This document shows, one piece after another, positions 11,328 through 18,444 of a stretch of DNA of 64,000 nucleotides. Under the pieces are notes generated by a model, which saw nothing but the letters and a program-made list of their open reading frames with translations, was not told where the DNA came from and ran no database searches. Numbering within the stretch: position 1 is the stretch's first letter; the number at the start of each line of letters is the position of its first letter. Source of the stretch: Spirochaetales bacterium (GTDB lineage Bacteria; Bacillota; Clostridia; Christensenellales; UBA1242); assembly GCA_050178795.1 (NCBI GenBank), contig JBFXFT010000006.1, positions 315 through 64,314 of the forward strand, written 5' to 3'. A program made the translations under genes and the position numbers.

Positions 11328-12029
11328 ATGTCAATTGATAAAAGTATTATTAAAAACATTAAAAATGATAGATTTAGGCTTATCTTTAAATTAGTGGAAA
11401 AAGATGAGCGTGCTTGTGAACTAGTAAACTATTTTTTTAAGGACTTTTTTTCTGACCCTGAATGTTTAAACGAAGTTAAAGAACAAATCAATAAAGAGCG
11501 AAGCGATGTTAGTTTTGCAAAAAATGTTATTTTAAATGGCAAGTTACGAATAAAACTTAATCAGTTTATTCCCAATCGCTTTGGTGGCGGAAGGGGAGAG
11601 CACTTAATGGGAGTAAGTTATGATGATGAGGGAAGCATTTCTCAAACCACTAGACTGTTTAATGAAAATGGTAGTTCTCTCGTTTTAAAAGTAAACAGTT
11701 TTGGCAACGATTTAGACCTTAAAAAATTTGCCGATCAACACTATAGTTGGCACATTTTTATGACGCATAAAGAAAAGACAAAGACAGAAGTTTTTTCTTT
11801 AGATTTTAAAGACGACAAAGTTTATTTGTTGACTGCAAGCCACATACCTTATAGGAATGAAACTGGTTCAGGCAGCAATAGACAAGAAGCAAAATCCTAT
11901 ATCGGCACTATGGAAGAGGTTCAAGAGTTGTTTTCTCATTTAAAGCACACCGAGTCTAGATATTCCGATTTAGACTATAAAAACAGTTTTGCAAAATATC
12001 ACTCAAGTGAAATTACGACTGATAGATAA
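11328..12029 (+). CDS. Hypothetical protein
   Basis: 233-aa ORF. Promoter TTGACA-16-TAAAAT lies about 60 nt upstream, RBS GAGGTG precedes the start, and a terminator hairpin follows the gene. No family was recognised. Confidence 0.5.
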   Translation: MSIDKSIIKNIKNDRFRLIFKLVEKDERACELVNYFFKDFFSDPECLNEVKEQINKERSDVSFAKNVILNGKLRIKLNQFIPNRFGGGRGEHLMGVSYDDEGSISQTTRLFNENGSSLVLKVNSFGNDLDLKKFADQHYSWHIFMTHKEKTKTEVFSLDFKDDKVYLLTASHIPYRNETGSGSNRQEAKSYIGTMEEVQELFSHLKHTESRYSDLDYKNSFAKYHSSEITTDR

Positions 12030-13016: not shown

Positions 13017-13082
13017 TTTGTTGTAAAAAAACATGGAAAAAAACCTAAGCGTTTGCTTAGGTTTTTTGTTTGCGATGAGTAT

Positions 13083-13727
13083 TTAATTTTGTTTATTTTG
13101 CCACTTTAATTGCTGTTTCTTTTTTAGGTATGCAAACGCACTATGAATAAGGAACAATAGTACAGCACAAGCTAGTAAAATTAAACCATATTCATATACG
13201 CTTATATCAAACTGTGAATTAAAGATAGGATATATATAACTGCCTTCTATTGCACCGTATGTAAGCAAGAACACCAAGTAAGCGAGCACAAAACCGATAG
13301 CCGTAAAAAAGTTATAGTAGTTGACATTTTTTTGCTCCACAGAAAAATATATTATCGTGAAGGCAACAGGATTAACCCAATGTATTAGTCCTTGTGTAAA
13401 AAAATTCATTGAAAAAAACTCAAAAATATGAACTTCCCAAAATGGCCATAACGTCAATCTAACAACTAAAAACATTAATATTAACGATAAAAGCATTGAA
13501 CTCATCGTTATTCCAGAAAAAACATATTTTTTTAGTTTGAATAGAAATAATAATGATGCTGCCGCCAAAAAAGAGTAGATTGCAAAAGCTGTAGTGAGTA
13601 GTACAGTAAAGTACTTAAAATCAAGTATTGCAATGACTGAAATTGTTGAAAGTATGCCGAGAGTCATAAATATGATGGCTAACAATAAATCTTTTACTGT
13701 TACATTTTTATAAACTAATTTTTTCAT
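13083..13727 (-). CDS. Hypothetical polytopic membrane protein (~6 TM)
   Basis: Hydrophobic segments run throughout, with a basic C-terminus. Confidence 0.55.
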   Translation of the reverse strand: MKKLVYKNVTVKDLLLAIIFMTLGILSTISVIAILDFKYFTVLLTTAFAIYSFLAAASLLFLFKLKKYVFSGITMSSMLLSLILMFLVVRLTLWPFWEVHIFEFFSMNFFTQGLIHWVNPVAFTIIYFSVEQKNVNYYNFFTAIGFVLAYLVFLLTYGAIEGSYIYPIFNSQFDISVYEYGLILLACAVLLFLIHSAFAYLKKKQQLKWQNKQN

Positions 13728-13739
13728 ATTTGCTCCTTT

Positions 13740-14231
13740 TTAAATTAAAGTATAGATATTTCCAAGTGCATTAATGGTATGTGTTTTGTAATCATAGTAA
13801 AAGTTGATTATATTCATTTCGTTATCTGGCAAAATAGTTATTTCTATTCGTCCGCTTTTTGTAAAGTAAATGAAGTTTGTAAAAGGGGAAGACATTCTTT
13901 CAATAAAGGCTATTTGTTCTTCGTCTGATAGTTCATATATCAACTTAAATTCTTCCGAATAAAAAATTTCAATATTAAAGAAGGTAATGTCGTCCCTATT
14001 TGTTATTTCTAGGTAACTTGATTCGTTGGGATTGTAGGCATACCCATTTAAGTTTTCATTAGCCGTAATGGTTGAGGAACTATTTGAGGTTAAAATGTAA
14101 GTGCCATTTTTCACCTCTTTTATTGCCCTTAAATCTTCAGTGAATATTAAAACATTAATTGCTAGAAATATTAAAATAATACAAACAATTATTGACATTT
14201 TATGTATTTTTAAAAATTCTTCTTTTTTCAT
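13740..14231 (-). CDS. Hypothetical membrane-anchored protein
   Basis: N-terminal TM helix 'MSIIVCIILIFLAINVLIF'. The gene is tightly spaced with its neighbours. Confidence 0.5.
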   Translation of the reverse strand: MKKEEFLKIHKMSIIVCIILIFLAINVLIFTEDLRAIKEVKNGTYILTSNSSSTITANENLNGYAYNPNESSYLEITNRDDITFFNIEIFYSEEFKLIYELSDEEQIAFIERMSSPFTNFIYFTKSGRIEITILPDNEMNIINFYYDYKTHTINALGNIYTLI

Positions 14232-14240
14232 TTAACACCT

Positions 14241-15932
14241 TTATTTTTTACCTTTTTTTATATAGTCATTAAATTCATTTAATAGCGTCTTAAACTCTTT
14301 TGGTAAGAAACTGTTGGCCCTTTTTAATATGTCGCTGTCAATGGTTTTGTAATAGGCTTCGCTTATGCTAGCCGTTATTGTCGCTATTGTGTCGGAGTCG
14401 CCACCAAAAGATATGGCTATTCTTAAAGCGTCTTCAAAACTTGTTGAGTGTAAAAACGAGATGAGTGATGGGCGCACAGTTTCAAGCGCTTCGGTTGTAA
14501 ATTTATAGTTTGCCCTATATGTCTCTATGTCCTCGTCCAGGTTCATATTATAGTTTGCGGTAACGTACTTTTTTAACTCTTCTTTTGAATAGCCGTTTTT
14601 TAATAAATATATGCTAATTGCAACAATCTCGGCACCCATTATTGCAGTTTTTGTGTCGTGCGCAGGTCTAATAGCGGTAAACGTTAAATTTTTTACCTCT
14701 TCAATGTTCTTTGCAAAATAGCCTATTGGGCTAGCAGACATTGCACCACCATTGCCTTCACTTTTTCTAAATGTTTTTGCACCATCTTCCGCCCACTTTG
14801 CAAAGTGCGGACCATAAATTGTCGGCGTTTGGTCTGGGTACTTTTTGTAGTACTTTCTTATTATGTCAAACATCTCTTCTGAAGTATGCTTTGTGTGAAG
14901 TAGCCAGTCAATAACGGCAAAAGTTAAAATAGTGTCGTCAGAAAAACCGCTTCTATTAGTAAAGAGTTCAAAATTTGTACTTTTTTTATTGTACCTTGAG
15001 TTTTCGTGTGCGTATGAACTTCCTATTATGTCTCCAATGTAAAAACCGTTCATTGTGTTTTCTTTTTGTTCTAGGTAATCCAAAAATTTTTTGCCAGCGA
15101 ATGGAAGTGAATAAAATTTATTGGTAACGAGTTCAATTTTGGATTTTGGCAAAGGTTTATCAAGTTTTAAGGCGTTTAAATTTTCTATTTTTAAATATTC
15201 TGGCGCAAAGGTTATTCCAAAACCAATTTTGGCTAGTTCAACTGCAAGTTCTTGGCTTACAACTTCCATAGTTGGTTCAAGTTTTACATTATGTTTTAAA
15301 CAAAAGTCGTCTAAAAACCGTCTACTGTTAGAGGCCTTGTTTTGTAAAATTAGTGGCATATTTTGTATGTCAGTTAGTGAATATGTATCATTATAATTAA
15401 AATATTTATTTGAGTATAAAAACATATTTGTTACTTCTCTTAGTGTTGTCACACTAAATGAAGCGTTGTCGCCTTCGCCCTCGTTCATAATTACAAAGTC
15501 AAGGTTGCCCTTTTCAAGGTCTAAAAGTAGGTTTTTGGTAAGGTCATTTTTTATTTCAAATTTAATATAGGGGTACTCTTTGTGGAACGCTTGCATAGGC
15601 TTTAGTAGTACAAATTTTGCAAGGGTAGTAGAGGTACCTATTTTTATTTTTCCGCTTTTTAATTCTTTAAAGTTGTTAAATTCAATGGTCGCATTTGTGA
15701 CAAGATTTAAAGCGCCCTTTATGTAGTTATAAAAAACTTTGCCCTCATCTGTTAAAACTAGCCCCTTATTTGAACGTAAAAACAATGTTCCGCCAATTTG
15801 TTCTTCTAATTTTTTAATGGACTGACTTACCGCAGGTTGAGATATAAAAAGTTTTTCTGCCGCTTTGGAAACATTTTGCTCCTCTGCGACTTCATAAAAG
15901 ATTTTACATAGTTCTAAGTTTATATTTACCAT
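14241..15932 (-). CDS. LysR-type transcriptional regulator fused in frame to an ADP-ribosylglycohydrolase (ARH/DraG-like) domain
   Basis: aa 1-293 form a LysR HTH ('VSKAAEKLFISQPAVSQSIKKLEEQIGGTLFLR') plus a substrate-binding domain. aa 294-563 carry ARH motifs: 'GDIIGSSYAHE', 'SDDT', 'GNGGAMSASP' and 'GGDSDTIATITASISEA'. No stop codon occurs at the junction (internal ATG at 15051-15053), and no SD precedes that ATG. Confidence 0.8.
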   Translation of the reverse strand: MVNINLELCKIFYEVAEEQNVSKAAEKLFISQPAVSQSIKKLEEQIGGTLFLRSNKGLVLTDEGKVFYNYIKGALNLVTNATIEFNNFKELKSGKIKIGTSTTLAKFVLLKPMQAFHKEYPYIKFEIKNDLTKNLLLDLEKGNLDFVIMNEGEGDNASFSVTTLREVTNMFLYSNKYFNYNDTYSLTDIQNMPLILQNKASNSRRFLDDFCLKHNVKLEPTMEVVSQELAVELAKIGFGITFAPEYLKIENLNALKLDKPLPKSKIELVTNKFYSLPFAGKKFLDYLEQKENTMNGFYIGDIIGSSYAHENSRYNKKSTNFELFTNRSGFSDDTILTFAVIDWLLHTKHTSEEMFDIIRKYYKKYPDQTPTIYGPHFAKWAEDGAKTFRKSEGNGGAMSASPIGYFAKNIEEVKNLTFTAIRPAHDTKTAIMGAEIVAISIYLLKNGYSKEELKKYVTANYNMNLDEDIETYRANYKFTTEALETVRPSLISFLHSTSFEDALRIAISFGGDSDTIATITASISEAYYKTIDSDILKRANSFLPKEFKTLLNEFNDYIKKGKK

Positions 15933-15945
15933 AACTACACCTTAT

Positions 15946-16010
15946 ATAGTGTATAAACACTATCTATTTTACTTATAGTCAATAATACAATAAAATGTAA
16001 CTATAAGTAA
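15946..16010. promoter_or_regulatory. Dyad symmetries in the LysR-ARH / coaC divergent intergenic region
   Basis: ATAGTG-n6-CACTAT at 15946-15963. TTACTTATAGT (15969-15979) pairs with ACTATAAGTAA (16000-16010), an 11-bp perfect inverted repeat. These arms bracket a putative TTACTT-16-TAAAAT promoter for coaC. Confidence 0.5.
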
Positions 16011-16048
16011 AGCAATTTAAAATTTATTTTAAAAAATGGAGGTGTATT

Positions 16049-16600
16049 ATGAGTTTAAAAAATAAAAACATATTGATTGGTGTAAGTGGTGGAATAGCCG
16101 CCTATAAAGTTGCTACTTTTATAGGTATGTTAAAAAAAGAGGGCGCAAATGTAAAGGCAATAATGACAAAAAATGCAACAGAGTTTATTGCCCCTTTAAC
16201 GCTCTCCTCTCTTTCACAAAACAAGGTGATTGTAGATATGTTTGATAAGGTGACGCAATACGACACGGAGCACATTACTTTAAGTAAGTGGGCTGACCTA
16301 CTTGTAGTAATTCCAGCAACAGCGAACATAATTGGTAAAATTGCAAGCGGAATAGCGGACGATATGCTTTCTACCACCATTATGGCGAGTAGGGCACAAG
16401 TATTAATTGCGCCAGCGATGAATACAAATATGTTTGAAAACAAAATAGTGCAAGATAACATACAAAAACTTATTAAATTTGACTATAAGTTTGTAATGCC
16501 ACAAAAGGGAATGCTCGCTTGTGGGGACGAAGGGGTCGGTAAACTCGCATCACTTGAAGAGGTACTAAGTATGGTAAAAGAATTAGTAGGGGGTAAATAG
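16049..16600 (+). CDS. coaC: Phosphopantothenoylcysteine decarboxylase (flavoprotein)
   Basis: 'ILIGVSGGIAAYKV', 'PATANIIGKIASGIADDMLST' and 'APAMNTNMF'. RBS GGAGG precedes the start. Confidence 0.9.
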   Translation: MSLKNKNILIGVSGGIAAYKVATFIGMLKKEGANVKAIMTKNATEFIAPLTLSSLSQNKVIVDMFDKVTQYDTEHITLSKWADLLVVIPATANIIGKIASGIADDMLSTTIMASRAQVLIAPAMNTNMFENKIVQDNIQKLIKFDYKFVMPQKGMLACGDEGVGKLASLEEVLSMVKELVGGK

Positions 16601-16601
16601 T

Positions 16602-17342
16602 ATGAATGTTGTAATAACCTCTGGCGGTACGAGTGAAAAGATTGACGATGTGCGCAAAATTACAAATAGATCAAGTGGCAAACTTGGTTCAATAATAGCA
16701 AGTACGCTTTTAACTGACAAAGACCTACAAATTGAAAACCTATTTTATATATGCTCTAAAACCGCCCTAAAGCCAACTGGCAATAAAGCCCACATAATTG
16801 TTGTAGAAAGTGCAAATAGTGTCTTAGAAGCGGTTAAAACGGTTTTAAAGGACAATAAAATAGATGTTTTTATTCACACTATGGCAGTTTCCGATTACAC
16901 GGTGCAATATGTCTCAACCAGTGGGCTACTTGCCGAGTATATAGAAAAAAATGTTAATAGAGAGCCAATAAAATATTTAATTGATAATAACCAAAATAAA
17001 CTTGCAGTAAACACAAAGATTTCTTCAAACGAAGATGATTTAATAATAAAACTGAAAAAGACGCCTAAAATAATATCTCAAATAAAACTAATAAGCCCAA
17101 ATACCTTTTTAATTGGCTTTAAACTTTTAAACGATGTGCCATTTGAGGAGCTAAAAAATAGGGCACTTGAACTTATGGCAAAAAACAGTTGTGACTTGGT
17201 TGTAGGTAACGATTTAAGCAATATAACAAAATATAGACACTTAGCAACAATTTTTGACACTATGGGTAACGAGTTATTTTGCAAAACCAAGAAGCAAATT
17301 GCAGAGACACTAACTTTAAAAATAAAAAATATGAGGTGGTAA
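16602..17342 (+). CDS. coaB: Phosphopantothenate--cysteine ligase
   Basis: 'VITSGGTSEKIDDVRKITNRSSGKLG'. The start lies 1 nt after the coaC stop. Confidence 0.85.
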   Translation: MNVVITSGGTSEKIDDVRKITNRSSGKLGSIIASTLLTDKDLQIENLFYICSKTALKPTGNKAHIIVVESANSVLEAVKTVLKDNKIDVFIHTMAVSDYTVQYVSTSGLLAEYIEKNVNREPIKYLIDNNQNKLAVNTKISSNEDDLIIKLKKTPKIISQIKLISPNTFLIGFKLLNDVPFEELKNRALELMAKNSCDLVVGNDLSNITKYRHLATIFDTMGNELFCKTKKQIAETLTLKIKNMRW

Positions 17343-17343
17343 T

Positions 17344-18444
17344 ATGGGAACAAAAGACATAAAAGAGTACACAACTTATAGCGATTCAAACTATTATTCT
17401 TTTTTGACAGACGAAGACTTTAAATTAAGAAAACATTTAAAACTACAACGCTATATTGTGGGCAAATATCACGCAAAAAAGTTGGGTGTTGATTTAATTG
17501 AAACTATTGATGATATGAATAGCCTTTCTCGTGATAGATACTATTTGTCTATGGCTTCAAATGAAGATCGTATACCTAAATTAAGAAATCAAGCGAAGAG
17601 CTTAATTTTACAGGGCGCAGACTTGACAATATATGGATGTTTAGAAAACGAAATGTTTGGACCAGGTTCCTCGGCACTTGATTTAACTTTTTATCGCGAA
17701 AAGGAACAAGAATTAAAAAACTATTTGATTAGCGCTGGCGCAAATATTAATTCGCTAAGTTTAATTGAAACTTTGTCGTGGGCTTCCAATGATCAATATT
17801 CTACAAATGCCGACAATAAAGAACTGGACAGTGACACAAGAACTGCACTAAAATTGGAGAGGCTGATAAATGGTGGTTTTGCCACCGTTGACGGCAGATT
17901 GCAAAGTAAATTTTTTGGCAAAGTAACATTGAGTACTCCTCTAATTATTGCGGTAACTAAACTTAGGTTTCATACCATAAAAAAATTGCTTCAACTCAAC
18001 TCCAATCCATTTTATAGAGCAATACAATTTGATGTTTCAAATAATCGTAGCCAAAAGGAAACGCATTCAGAAAAACCTTTTGAACGAAAAACGGCACTAG
18101 AATATTGTTTTGATAAGAGAGCGTGGCTTATAGAACAATTAAGTGGGCAAATAGACGAAAAGATGTATCCAGACGCAAGGAATTTATATACAAAGCAACT
18201 ATTTGTTGCAGGCAAGATAATTGAACTTTTAACAAATTATGAGGACGAATGGAAAAGGGCAAACAAGTTTATACCAGAGGAATATTATAATAAAAATTTT
18301 TTGTGTTATGTGGTAGATAAAAAGAACAGTGAATTAACAAAAAAGGACGTAGGAAAAACGGTTTATAAAGTTAGACGAGTAGATAAAATATTAAAAATCA
18401 TAAATTCAAACAAGCCACAAGTAGAAAATAATTTAGAACTATAA
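17344..18444 (+). CDS. Hypothetical protein with ankyrin-repeat-like segments, translationally coupled to coaB
   Basis: 'LILQGADLTIYG', 'YLISAGANINSLS' and 'STPLIIAVTKLRFHTIKKLLQLNSNP' resemble ankyrin consensus pieces. The start lies 1 nt after the coaB stop. Confidence 0.4.
   Translation: MGTKDIKEYTTYSDSNYYSFLTDEDFKLRKHLKLQRYIVGKYHAKKLGVDLIETIDDMNSLSRDRYYLSMASNEDRIPKLRNQAKSLILQGADLTIYGCLENEMFGPGSSALDLTFYREKEQELKNYLISAGANINSLSLIETLSWASNDQYSTNADNKELDSDTRTALKLERLINGGFATVDGRLQSKFFGKVTLSTPLIIAVTKLRFHTIKKLLQLNSNPFYRAIQFDVSNNRSQKETHSEKPFERKTALEYCFDKRAWLIEQLSGQIDEKMYPDARNLYTKQLFVAGKIIELLTNYEDEWKRANKFIPEEYYNKNFLCYVVDKKNSELTKKDVGKTVYKVRRVDKILKIINSNKPQVENNLEL

Follow-up and report, generated by a model that had tools for sequence, protein, structure and literature searches.

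LysR-type transcriptional regulators (LTTRs) such as CcmR (5Y2V), OxyR (4X6G), CbnR (1IXC) and BenM (3K1N) are single chains of ~300 amino acids (aa) in which an HTH_1 DNA-binding domain is followed by a linker helix and a two-lobed effector-binding domain, and their genes diverge from a metabolic operon, with which they share a promoter region that contains a dyad. Proteins of the ADP-ribosylglycohydrolase (ARH)/DraG family (PF03747; ARH3, ARH1, DraG, Tri1, Lmo0067) carry SDD and DSDT motifs; ARH3 depends critically on Thr76/Asp77/Asp78 and Asp314/Asp316/Thr317 to bind Mg2+ and ADP-ribose and to act as a hydrolase (PMC9738213). Domains of enzyme families have also been found joined to DNA-binding domains. 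In NrtR, a Nudix-like effector domain is combined with a helix-turn-helix (HTH) domain, and ADP-ribose weakens DNA binding (PMC2330246); NadR, BirA, PutA and RbkR likewise combine a cofactor-enzyme-family domain with a DNA-binding domain, near cofactor-biosynthesis genes (PMC2330246; PMC5397151). Here, we analysed a stretch of 64,000 nucleotides (nt), hereafter the window, from contig 6 (JBFXFT010000006.1) of the clostridial genome GCA_050178795.1 (G000; 0.93 Mb, 11 contigs, 100% complete), in which one open reading frame (ORF) joins an LTTR to an ARH. At the level of the sequence, the fusion is real and is accounted for by one stop-codon change in one lineage. It occurs in one organism only among the data searched and has the appearance of a recent accident of evolution rather than of a new family of regulators.

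The fusion ORF (Table 1) comprises 563 codons without an internal stop or frameshift, and its HTH_1, LysR_substrate and ADP_ribosyl_GH domains score three to four times the Pfam gathering thresholds, with the ARH match spanning profile positions 5-279 of 287. An earlier note on this DNA, made from the letters alone, had described a full LysR regulator followed by an ARH domain in one 563-aa ORF, and ORF reading and Pfam bear this out. Every motif that it listed was found (GDIIGSSYAHE, SDDT, GNGGAMSASP and GGDSDTIATI, and the junction DYLEQKENT-MNGFYIGD), and the junction does lack a stop codon and, before its internal ATG, a Shine-Dalgarno (SD) sequence. The LysR part shares HTH_1, linker helix and two-lobed effector-binding domain with the canonical LTTRs; a Foldseek search matched residues 1-~290 to the full-length LTTRs CcmR and OxyR (TMt 0.79-0.80, E 2e-19). 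The fusion differs from them in a 270-aa C-terminal enzyme domain, by which the chain reaches 563 aa. Sequence matches of this domain in the PDB were ARH3, Lmo0067, MJ1187 and the T. thermophilus ARH. In an AlphaFold2 (AF2) model built with a composite alignment (mean predicted local distance difference test score 93, predicted TM-score 0.69), both modules are folded with high confidence; LysR ends with helix 278-287, residues 288-295 form a coil, and the ARH opens with helix 296-305.

How the two modules came to be joined can be read from the junction. A congener, G001, has a free-standing LysR ortholog of 286 aa, with 69% amino-acid and 70% nucleotide identity, and in the alignment of the two loci its TAA stop lies exactly opposite GAA/Glu288 of the fusion, where the homology of both loci stops. 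On the other side, the closest ARH among 1.84 billion representative proteins (P0071; 272 aa, 58% identity) is a standalone protein whose residue 1 lies opposite residue 294. Pattern scans of metagenome and genome collections yielded 34 loci of ARH relatives with 49-59% identity, mostly from metagenome-assembled genomes (MAGs) of gut Clostridia, and all 34 match from residue 1 of the ARH query. Each of the 28 standalone genes inspected starts at an ATG equivalent to Met294, preceded by a GGAG-type SD sequence 6-10 nt upstream and by an in-frame stop 0-31 codons upstream. The stretch before Met294 in the fusion, acaaaaagaaaacaca, has no SD core between -20 and -4; in the window, such a core precedes 29 of 40 long ORFs, versus 13% of internal in-frame ATGs. 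The fusion is explained because one T-to-G change at the lysR stop, given an in-frame and stop-free 15-nt spacer, suffices to produce it. Fusions of co-oriented, co-transcribed neighbours by stop-codon loss show the same features, that is, a stop codon turned into a sense codon, a spacer serving as linker and a start codon kept as an internal Met. The mechanism is hence a textbook route, and the sole notable point is the partner pair.

We consider it fairly probable that the gene is a lineage-specific stop-loss fusion, in which an ordinary LTTR acting on a conserved dyad carries a probably active ARH passenger. The ancestor would have had an ordinary LysR-type regulator of ~287 aa, divergent from coaC-coaB, and, in this lineage, a free-standing, co-oriented ARH gene of ~270 aa, which began 15 nt past the lysR stop and was already transcribed from the lysR promoter. 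A change of codon 288 from TAA to GAA, its direction and its place in this order being what we infer, would have allowed ribosomes to read the 15-nt spacer into the ARH start codon, so that 8 residues of coil now separate the final LysR helix from the opening helix of the ARH. The product would be an autoregulated LTTR bound to the dyad in the lysR/coaC intergenic region, with the ARH as a C-terminal passenger that is made 1:1 with the regulator, has lost its own ribosome-binding site and is presumably not functionally coupled to it. There is an alternative one-step route: with one A less in the A5 run (~15064-15068), the junction would read caATGA, a stop overlapping the start. Origin by such a homopolymer frameshift was rejected, as A often comes after ATG where the genome is AT-rich, and the TAA of G001 stands opposite GAA288, which makes the substitution the better-supported event.

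The same proximity to two separate genes bears on two other explanations. One is that there are two genes in reality, and that the consensus base at 15071 or the length of a nearby A-run is wrong or reflects a minority allele. By either route, a single mutation would divide the ORF into two genes, and the ORF is known from a single sample as contigs only. The sole public run that holds the sequence, X1, is a landfill metagenome, and its Logan k-mer assembly contains a 25.6-kb contig that shows 0 differences and 0 gaps to positions 14700-15400 at ~20x word depth. X1 is probably the same sample as that of the assembly, and the comparison, made between contigs, is thus one of different assemblers and not of independent material. 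The lost stop or assembly error against which the earlier note had cautioned is nevertheless not seen, the contig from the second assembler being identical across this interval. An artefact is therefore improbable, because two assemblers agree at this depth, an error-free, unitig-based contig of 25.6 kb argues for accurate reads, and the lack of an SD sequence at Met294 is more in keeping with a real fusion than with a separate gene that works. The key difference from G001 at the junction is a base substitution and not a homopolymer length. The other explanation is that two products are made, the 64-kDa fusion together with either free ARH started at Met294 or free LysR released when ribosomes slip by +1 on CAA AAA G. 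In the ancestor, translation of the ARH began at Met294, and a TGA in the +1 frame overlaps its ATG (caA TGA). However, we regard two products as very improbable: no SD sequence precedes Met294, slippage would be inefficient on a run as short as A5, no known frameshift heptamer is present, and promoter-like matches are at chance level (12 vs 14.9 expected).

Table 1. Features of the fusion locus (positions in the window; bits are Pfam scores, with cut-offs where given)
Feature	Positions	Strand	Evidence or remark
Fusion ORF, LysR-type regulator + ADP-ribosylglycohydrolase, 563 aa	14241..15932	(-)	stop TAA at 14241-14243
HTH_1 DNA-binding domain, aa 7-65	15738..15914	(-)	Pfam PF00126, 75.4 bits vs cut-off 26.6
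LysR_substrate effector domain, aa 91-289, final helix 278-287	15066..15662	(-)	Pfam PF03466, 90.5 bits
GAA codon, Glu288, at ancestral lysR stop position	15069..15071	(-)	codon-level DNA alignment; G001 has TAA
15-nt former intergenic spacer, now linker QKENT, no GGAG Shine-Dalgarno	15054..15068	(-)	coil 288-295 in AF2 model
ATG of Met294, start codon of the formerly free-standing ARH gene	15051..15053	(-)	alignments with standalone relatives
ARH module, aa 294-563	14244..15053	(-)	Pfam PF03747 ADP_ribosyl_GH at aa 296-528, 84.2 bits vs cut-off 26.2
lysR/coaC divergent intergenic region, 116 bp, candidate LysR operator	15933..16048	.	perfect 12-bp inverted repeat
Split coaC (16049-16600) and coaB (16602-17342)	16049..17342	(+)	Pfam Flavoprotein, DFP; NCBIfam coaC_strep/coaB_strep-like
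orf163 (13740-14231) and orf214 (13083-13727), small co-oriented downstream genes	13038..14231	(-)	no Pfam match

Both modules look intact, with a low ratio of nonsynonymous to synonymous substitution (dN/dS) in LysR, a complete fold, conserved ARH ligands and an ordinary ARH branch. Compared with the G001 ortholog, dN/dS of the LysR part is 0.13 (dS 1.7, near saturation), and on this comparison purifying selection has acted on it on average. None of the NCBIfam LTTR equivalogs reaches its cut-off with the LysR part. The ARH part retains the metal-ligand motifs D301, S331-D332-D333-T334 and D512-x-D514-T515; S331-D332-D333 stands opposite YTDDT of ARH3 and D512-S-D514-T515 opposite GGDTDT, in columns that are invariant or near-invariant. 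The metal-binding residues that the earlier note had wished to see verified are thus intact by alignment to ARH3 and to relatives, and in a 24-sequence ARH alignment the fused ARH agrees with every invariant column (10/10) and with all but one of the near-invariant ones (15/16). Where ARH3 has the canonical catalytic Glu (Glu41), it has Ala308, with His309-Glu310, invariant in the subclade, two residues on. Loss of the catalytic Glu (YEF to YAH) was considered and rejected, as Y[A/T]HE occurs in the three closest relatives and in 28 of 28 inspected loci; because the whole subclade has it, Ala308 is a clade trait and not decay. The fused ARH shares the Pfam match and the SDD and DSDT motifs with the ARH/DraG family at large; it differs in belonging to a short (~265-275 aa) clostridial subclade in which Y[A/T]HE replaces the canonical Glu, and, among the relatives examined, in being the sole member joined to a regulator and in carrying R399S and T424A. 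It is far below the cut-offs of the DraG and Tri1 NCBIfam equivalogs (27.2 bits vs 337 and 26.3 bits vs 490, respectively). The ARH looks like an enzyme because its catalytic metal-ligand motifs are kept, unlike the degenerate Nudix domain of NrtR. Judging from these residues, the fused ARH is probably a di-metal ADP-ribosyl hydrolase that is still active.

Gene decay in a drifting reduced genome (0.93 Mb) is another explanation, according to which one module is compromised and the ORF is heading to pseudogenisation: the ARH could be crippled by R399S and T424A together with its being tethered at a distance of only seven residues from the first active-site motif, or the oligomerisation of LysR could be disturbed. 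The genome is indeed reduced and the family loses genes (coaC was not found in 15 relatives and is a pseudogene in G001); moreover, two family-conserved ARH residues are changed, the linker is very short, the SD sequence of the ARH start is lost, and other odd LysR chimeras occur in relatives. We nonetheless consider decay unlikely. No stop or frameshift has appeared in 563 codons, the metal ligands are intact, purifying selection acts on the LysR part on average, and the AF2 model is highly confident for both modules. The fused ARH branches off at the base of the subclade in a maximum-likelihood tree, with a terminal branch of 0.40, compared with 0.31-0.83 for comparably deep standalone tips; its branch is no longer than those of standalone relatives, and accelerated evolution of the fused ARH was rejected on this ground.

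The architecture was not found elsewhere. A word search of a 5.8-billion-cluster collection placed the fusion in a singleton cluster and gave no other match with all three domains, and the best 150 matches of an exhaustive phmmer search against the 1.84 billion representative proteins were all LysR-only or ARH-only; no second fusion is hidden among these best matches because a true fusion would gain score from either half and so come out at the head of the list. Eight long candidates (P0090, P0219, P0104, P0195, P0101, P0155, P0172 and P0175) were rejected as LysR fusions, since they are ARHs with non-LysR partners, namely isochorismatase, DSP-phosphatase, DUF1810, a second ARH or unassigned sequence. 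None of the 34 related loci has a LysR gene within 4 kb of the ARH (0/34), and the genomic contexts of these loci vary; no ARH was found in G001. In the literature, the LysR-ARH combination is not described, and joint mentions of both terms are incidental. Accordingly, the view of the earlier note that the domain combination is undescribed holds for the best 150 of 1.84 billion proteins, for the search of 5.8 billion clusters and for the literature. A new sensor-regulator family is a different matter and finds no support: the fusion is a singleton, LysR and ARH are adjacent at none of the 34 loci, and the junction is what chance loss of a stop would leave. Two observations concern the ARH loci themselves. 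In two Clostridia MAGs (L043:2066-5936 and L042:132-2766), a standalone ARH of the subclade lies between dnaK and dnaJ, and at L006, L007 and L039 a small ORF, GNAT-like by eye, adjoins the ARH.

On its LysR side, the locus retains the layout of a canonical LTTR, including divergence from a metabolic operon and a dyad in the shared promoter region. Divergent transcription from coaC-coaB, which the earlier note had read from the sequence, is confirmed by Pfam and NCBIfam. The two genes belong to coenzyme A (CoA) biosynthesis and are split here; order-level relatives have a fused CoaBC of ~400 aa, and coaC at E<=1e-10 was not found in the 15 other genomes of the family. In G001, tblastn detected a coaC remnant of 65 codons (38% identity) that is interrupted by in-frame stops; its GGIAAYK motif is degraded, and nothing else of the gene is left. 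The remnant, at L009:7376-7570 (+), corresponding to G001:C70 about 11375-11569, is exactly divergent from lysR, and the lysR/coaC pairing is therefore ancestral to the genus. A lineage-specific acquisition of coaC-coaB was rejected for the same reason. The loss of CoA biosynthesis appears, from these gene contents, to be caught in progress in the family. The inverted repeat in the intergenic region consists of TTTACTTATAGT (15968-15979) and ACTATAAGTAAA (16000-16011) with a 20-nt spacer, for which the chance expectation is ~1% (estimate), and its right arm together with the flank (ACTATAAGTAAAATA for both) is identical upstream of lysR in G001. The dyad, which is unique in the genome, fits the operator of an autoregulated LTTR that would also control coaC. 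A wider regulon via this operator was rejected, as the only other copy of the 12-mer lies within coding sequence and has no partner arm. Because the LysR of G001 is intact and constrained after the loss of coaC, coaC is not the only role of this LysR.

Downstream of the fusion gene, a terminator-like hairpin at 13038-13067 follows orf163 and orf214, and the three genes form a probable single transcription unit. As the hairpin comes only after these genes, the ARH would already have been in the lysR transcription unit before the fusion. No homologs of orf163 or orf214 were found at any examined locus of the ARH or LysR relatives, and arrival of the ARH as a block with these genes was rejected on that basis. 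On the coaB side, a 366-aa ORF at 17344-18444 (+) begins 1 nt past the coaB stop; it has no significant Pfam match (a weak DUF3908 match is below cut-off) and no homolog at the G001 locus. Downstream of the LysR locus in G001 (L009:922-4174 (-), on G001:C70), there are tandem paralogs of 451 and 468 aa that are identical over their first ~330 residues and have diverged towards the C-terminus.

A regulator of the NrtR or trigger-enzyme type also has to be weighed. The ARH would bind or hydrolyse ADP-ribose, O-acetyl-ADP-ribose or an ADP-ribosylated substrate and thereby alter DNA binding by LysR, so that transcription of coaC-coaB and of its own operon would follow ADP-ribose or NAD turnover. 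The fusion does place an enzyme-family domain and a DNA-binding domain in one chain, as such regulators do, and NrtR is a precedent for an ADP-ribose-handling enzyme fold joined to a DNA-binding domain (PMC2330246). The lysR/coaC pairing and the dyad operator are ancestral; without an SD sequence, expression of the ARH depends wholly on the fusion, yet the domain is intact; and R399S and T424A could mark a shift from catalysis to binding. NrtR and the other hybrids are, however, conserved families with reconstructed regulons, whereas this architecture is not conserved across species, being a singleton among the best matches from 1.84 billion representatives. LysR-ARH adjacency is found nowhere else among the 34 loci, G001 has no ARH, and the junction is the exact outcome of chance stop loss. 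In addition, the LysR part has a complete effector-binding domain of its own, and all catalytic metal ligands of the ARH are kept, unlike the perturbed Nudix signature of NrtR (PMC9738213; PMC2330246).

The possible ligands also speak against an NrtR-type function. No SIR2 was found in the G000 genome, which thus offers no O-acetyl-ADP-ribose of sirtuin origin. In ARH3 structures, the ARH di-metal site binds a terminal ribose, which is missing from CoA. We therefore consider a regulator of the NrtR type improbable, and we give similarly little credence to the ARH being a second LTTR input kept by selection, whether by binding of ADP-ribose or O-acetyl-ADP-ribose or by removal of an ADP-ribosyl mark. 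The proposal of the earlier note that the ARH serves as an extra sensor for CoA or another ADP-containing metabolite is not supported: the fusion is a singleton that a stop-codon change explains, LysR and ARH are not adjacent elsewhere, the catalytic motifs are kept, and the LysR of G001 is intact without an ARH or a working coaC.

LysR chimeras of other kinds were found in relatives. In G009, a reduced genome of the same family (contig C5; L010:4159-5844 (-)), a radical-SAM domain and a complete LysR regulator are joined without a linker in an ORF of 561 aa; where relatives have the start Met, the N-terminus of this LysR (LNINLNLY) has Leu, and the next gene is a NUDIX gene. P0005 (L012:42-1007 (+)) is a 321-aa chimera in which the N-terminal half of a protein closely related to this LysR precedes a NudE-like NUDIX domain. 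Its LysR half comprises the HTH and the first 60 effector-domain residues and is near-identical to P0002, and the contig also holds a serine recombinase; this arrangement suggests that the chimera arose from rearrangement. Zero-linker LysR fusions or chimeras elsewhere in related reduced genomes (G009, P0005) speak for the stop-loss explanation of the LysR-ARH fusion. In G000 itself, a second LysR paralog stands after a nucleoside-hydrolase-like gene and a NUDIX gene in an apparent operon (L048:1383-4096 (-), G000:C3:41882-44595); the best NCBIfam match of the nucleoside-hydrolase-like gene is XopQ-like, far below cut-off. A recurrent link between the LysR clade and ADP-ribose NUDIX enzymes (L013, P0005, G009, G000:C3) was considered and rejected, as the partners are Idi-like, generic MutT-like and NudE-like, none of the NUDIX partners reaches a curated cut-off, and NUDIX genes are abundant in G000 (7 in 0.93 Mb).

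Several points weigh against a chance fusion with a passenger enzyme. The formation of LTTR tetramers is possibly incompatible with a 270-aa C-terminal appendage. R399S (in GNGxAMR) and T424A (the Thr/Ser before an invariant His) alter residues that are conserved in 23 of 23 other aligned sequences, and, to judge by this conservation, these changes may mean altered or reduced ARH activity. The missing SD sequence together with an intact ARH could indicate a fusion old enough for selective maintenance, which would favour a joint function. With one congener for comparison, the ARH may either have arrived in this lineage or have been lost in G001. Finally, the organism comes from one sample compared at contig level, and a minority unfused allele is possible.

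Modulation of the LysR regulator by the ARH is unlikely. If it were true, an ARH-type domain would for the first time be seen as an input of a transcription factor, and the fusion would be a natural experiment on how enzyme-regulator hybrids originate. It would be an ARH-based analogue of NrtR caught at birth, and the last CoA-biosynthesis genes that this reduced-genome lineage of Clostridia has retained would be tied in their transcription to NAD/ADP-ribose turnover. For annotation, the gene should neither be propagated as a family nor split automatically as an error. As a stop-loss fusion, it offers a datable case of the one-step origin of a multidomain regulator, in which the stop is kept in G001, the spacer has become a linker and the start codon an internal Met, and, on a small scale, it illustrates how genes fuse and are lost in a genome of 0.93 Mb.

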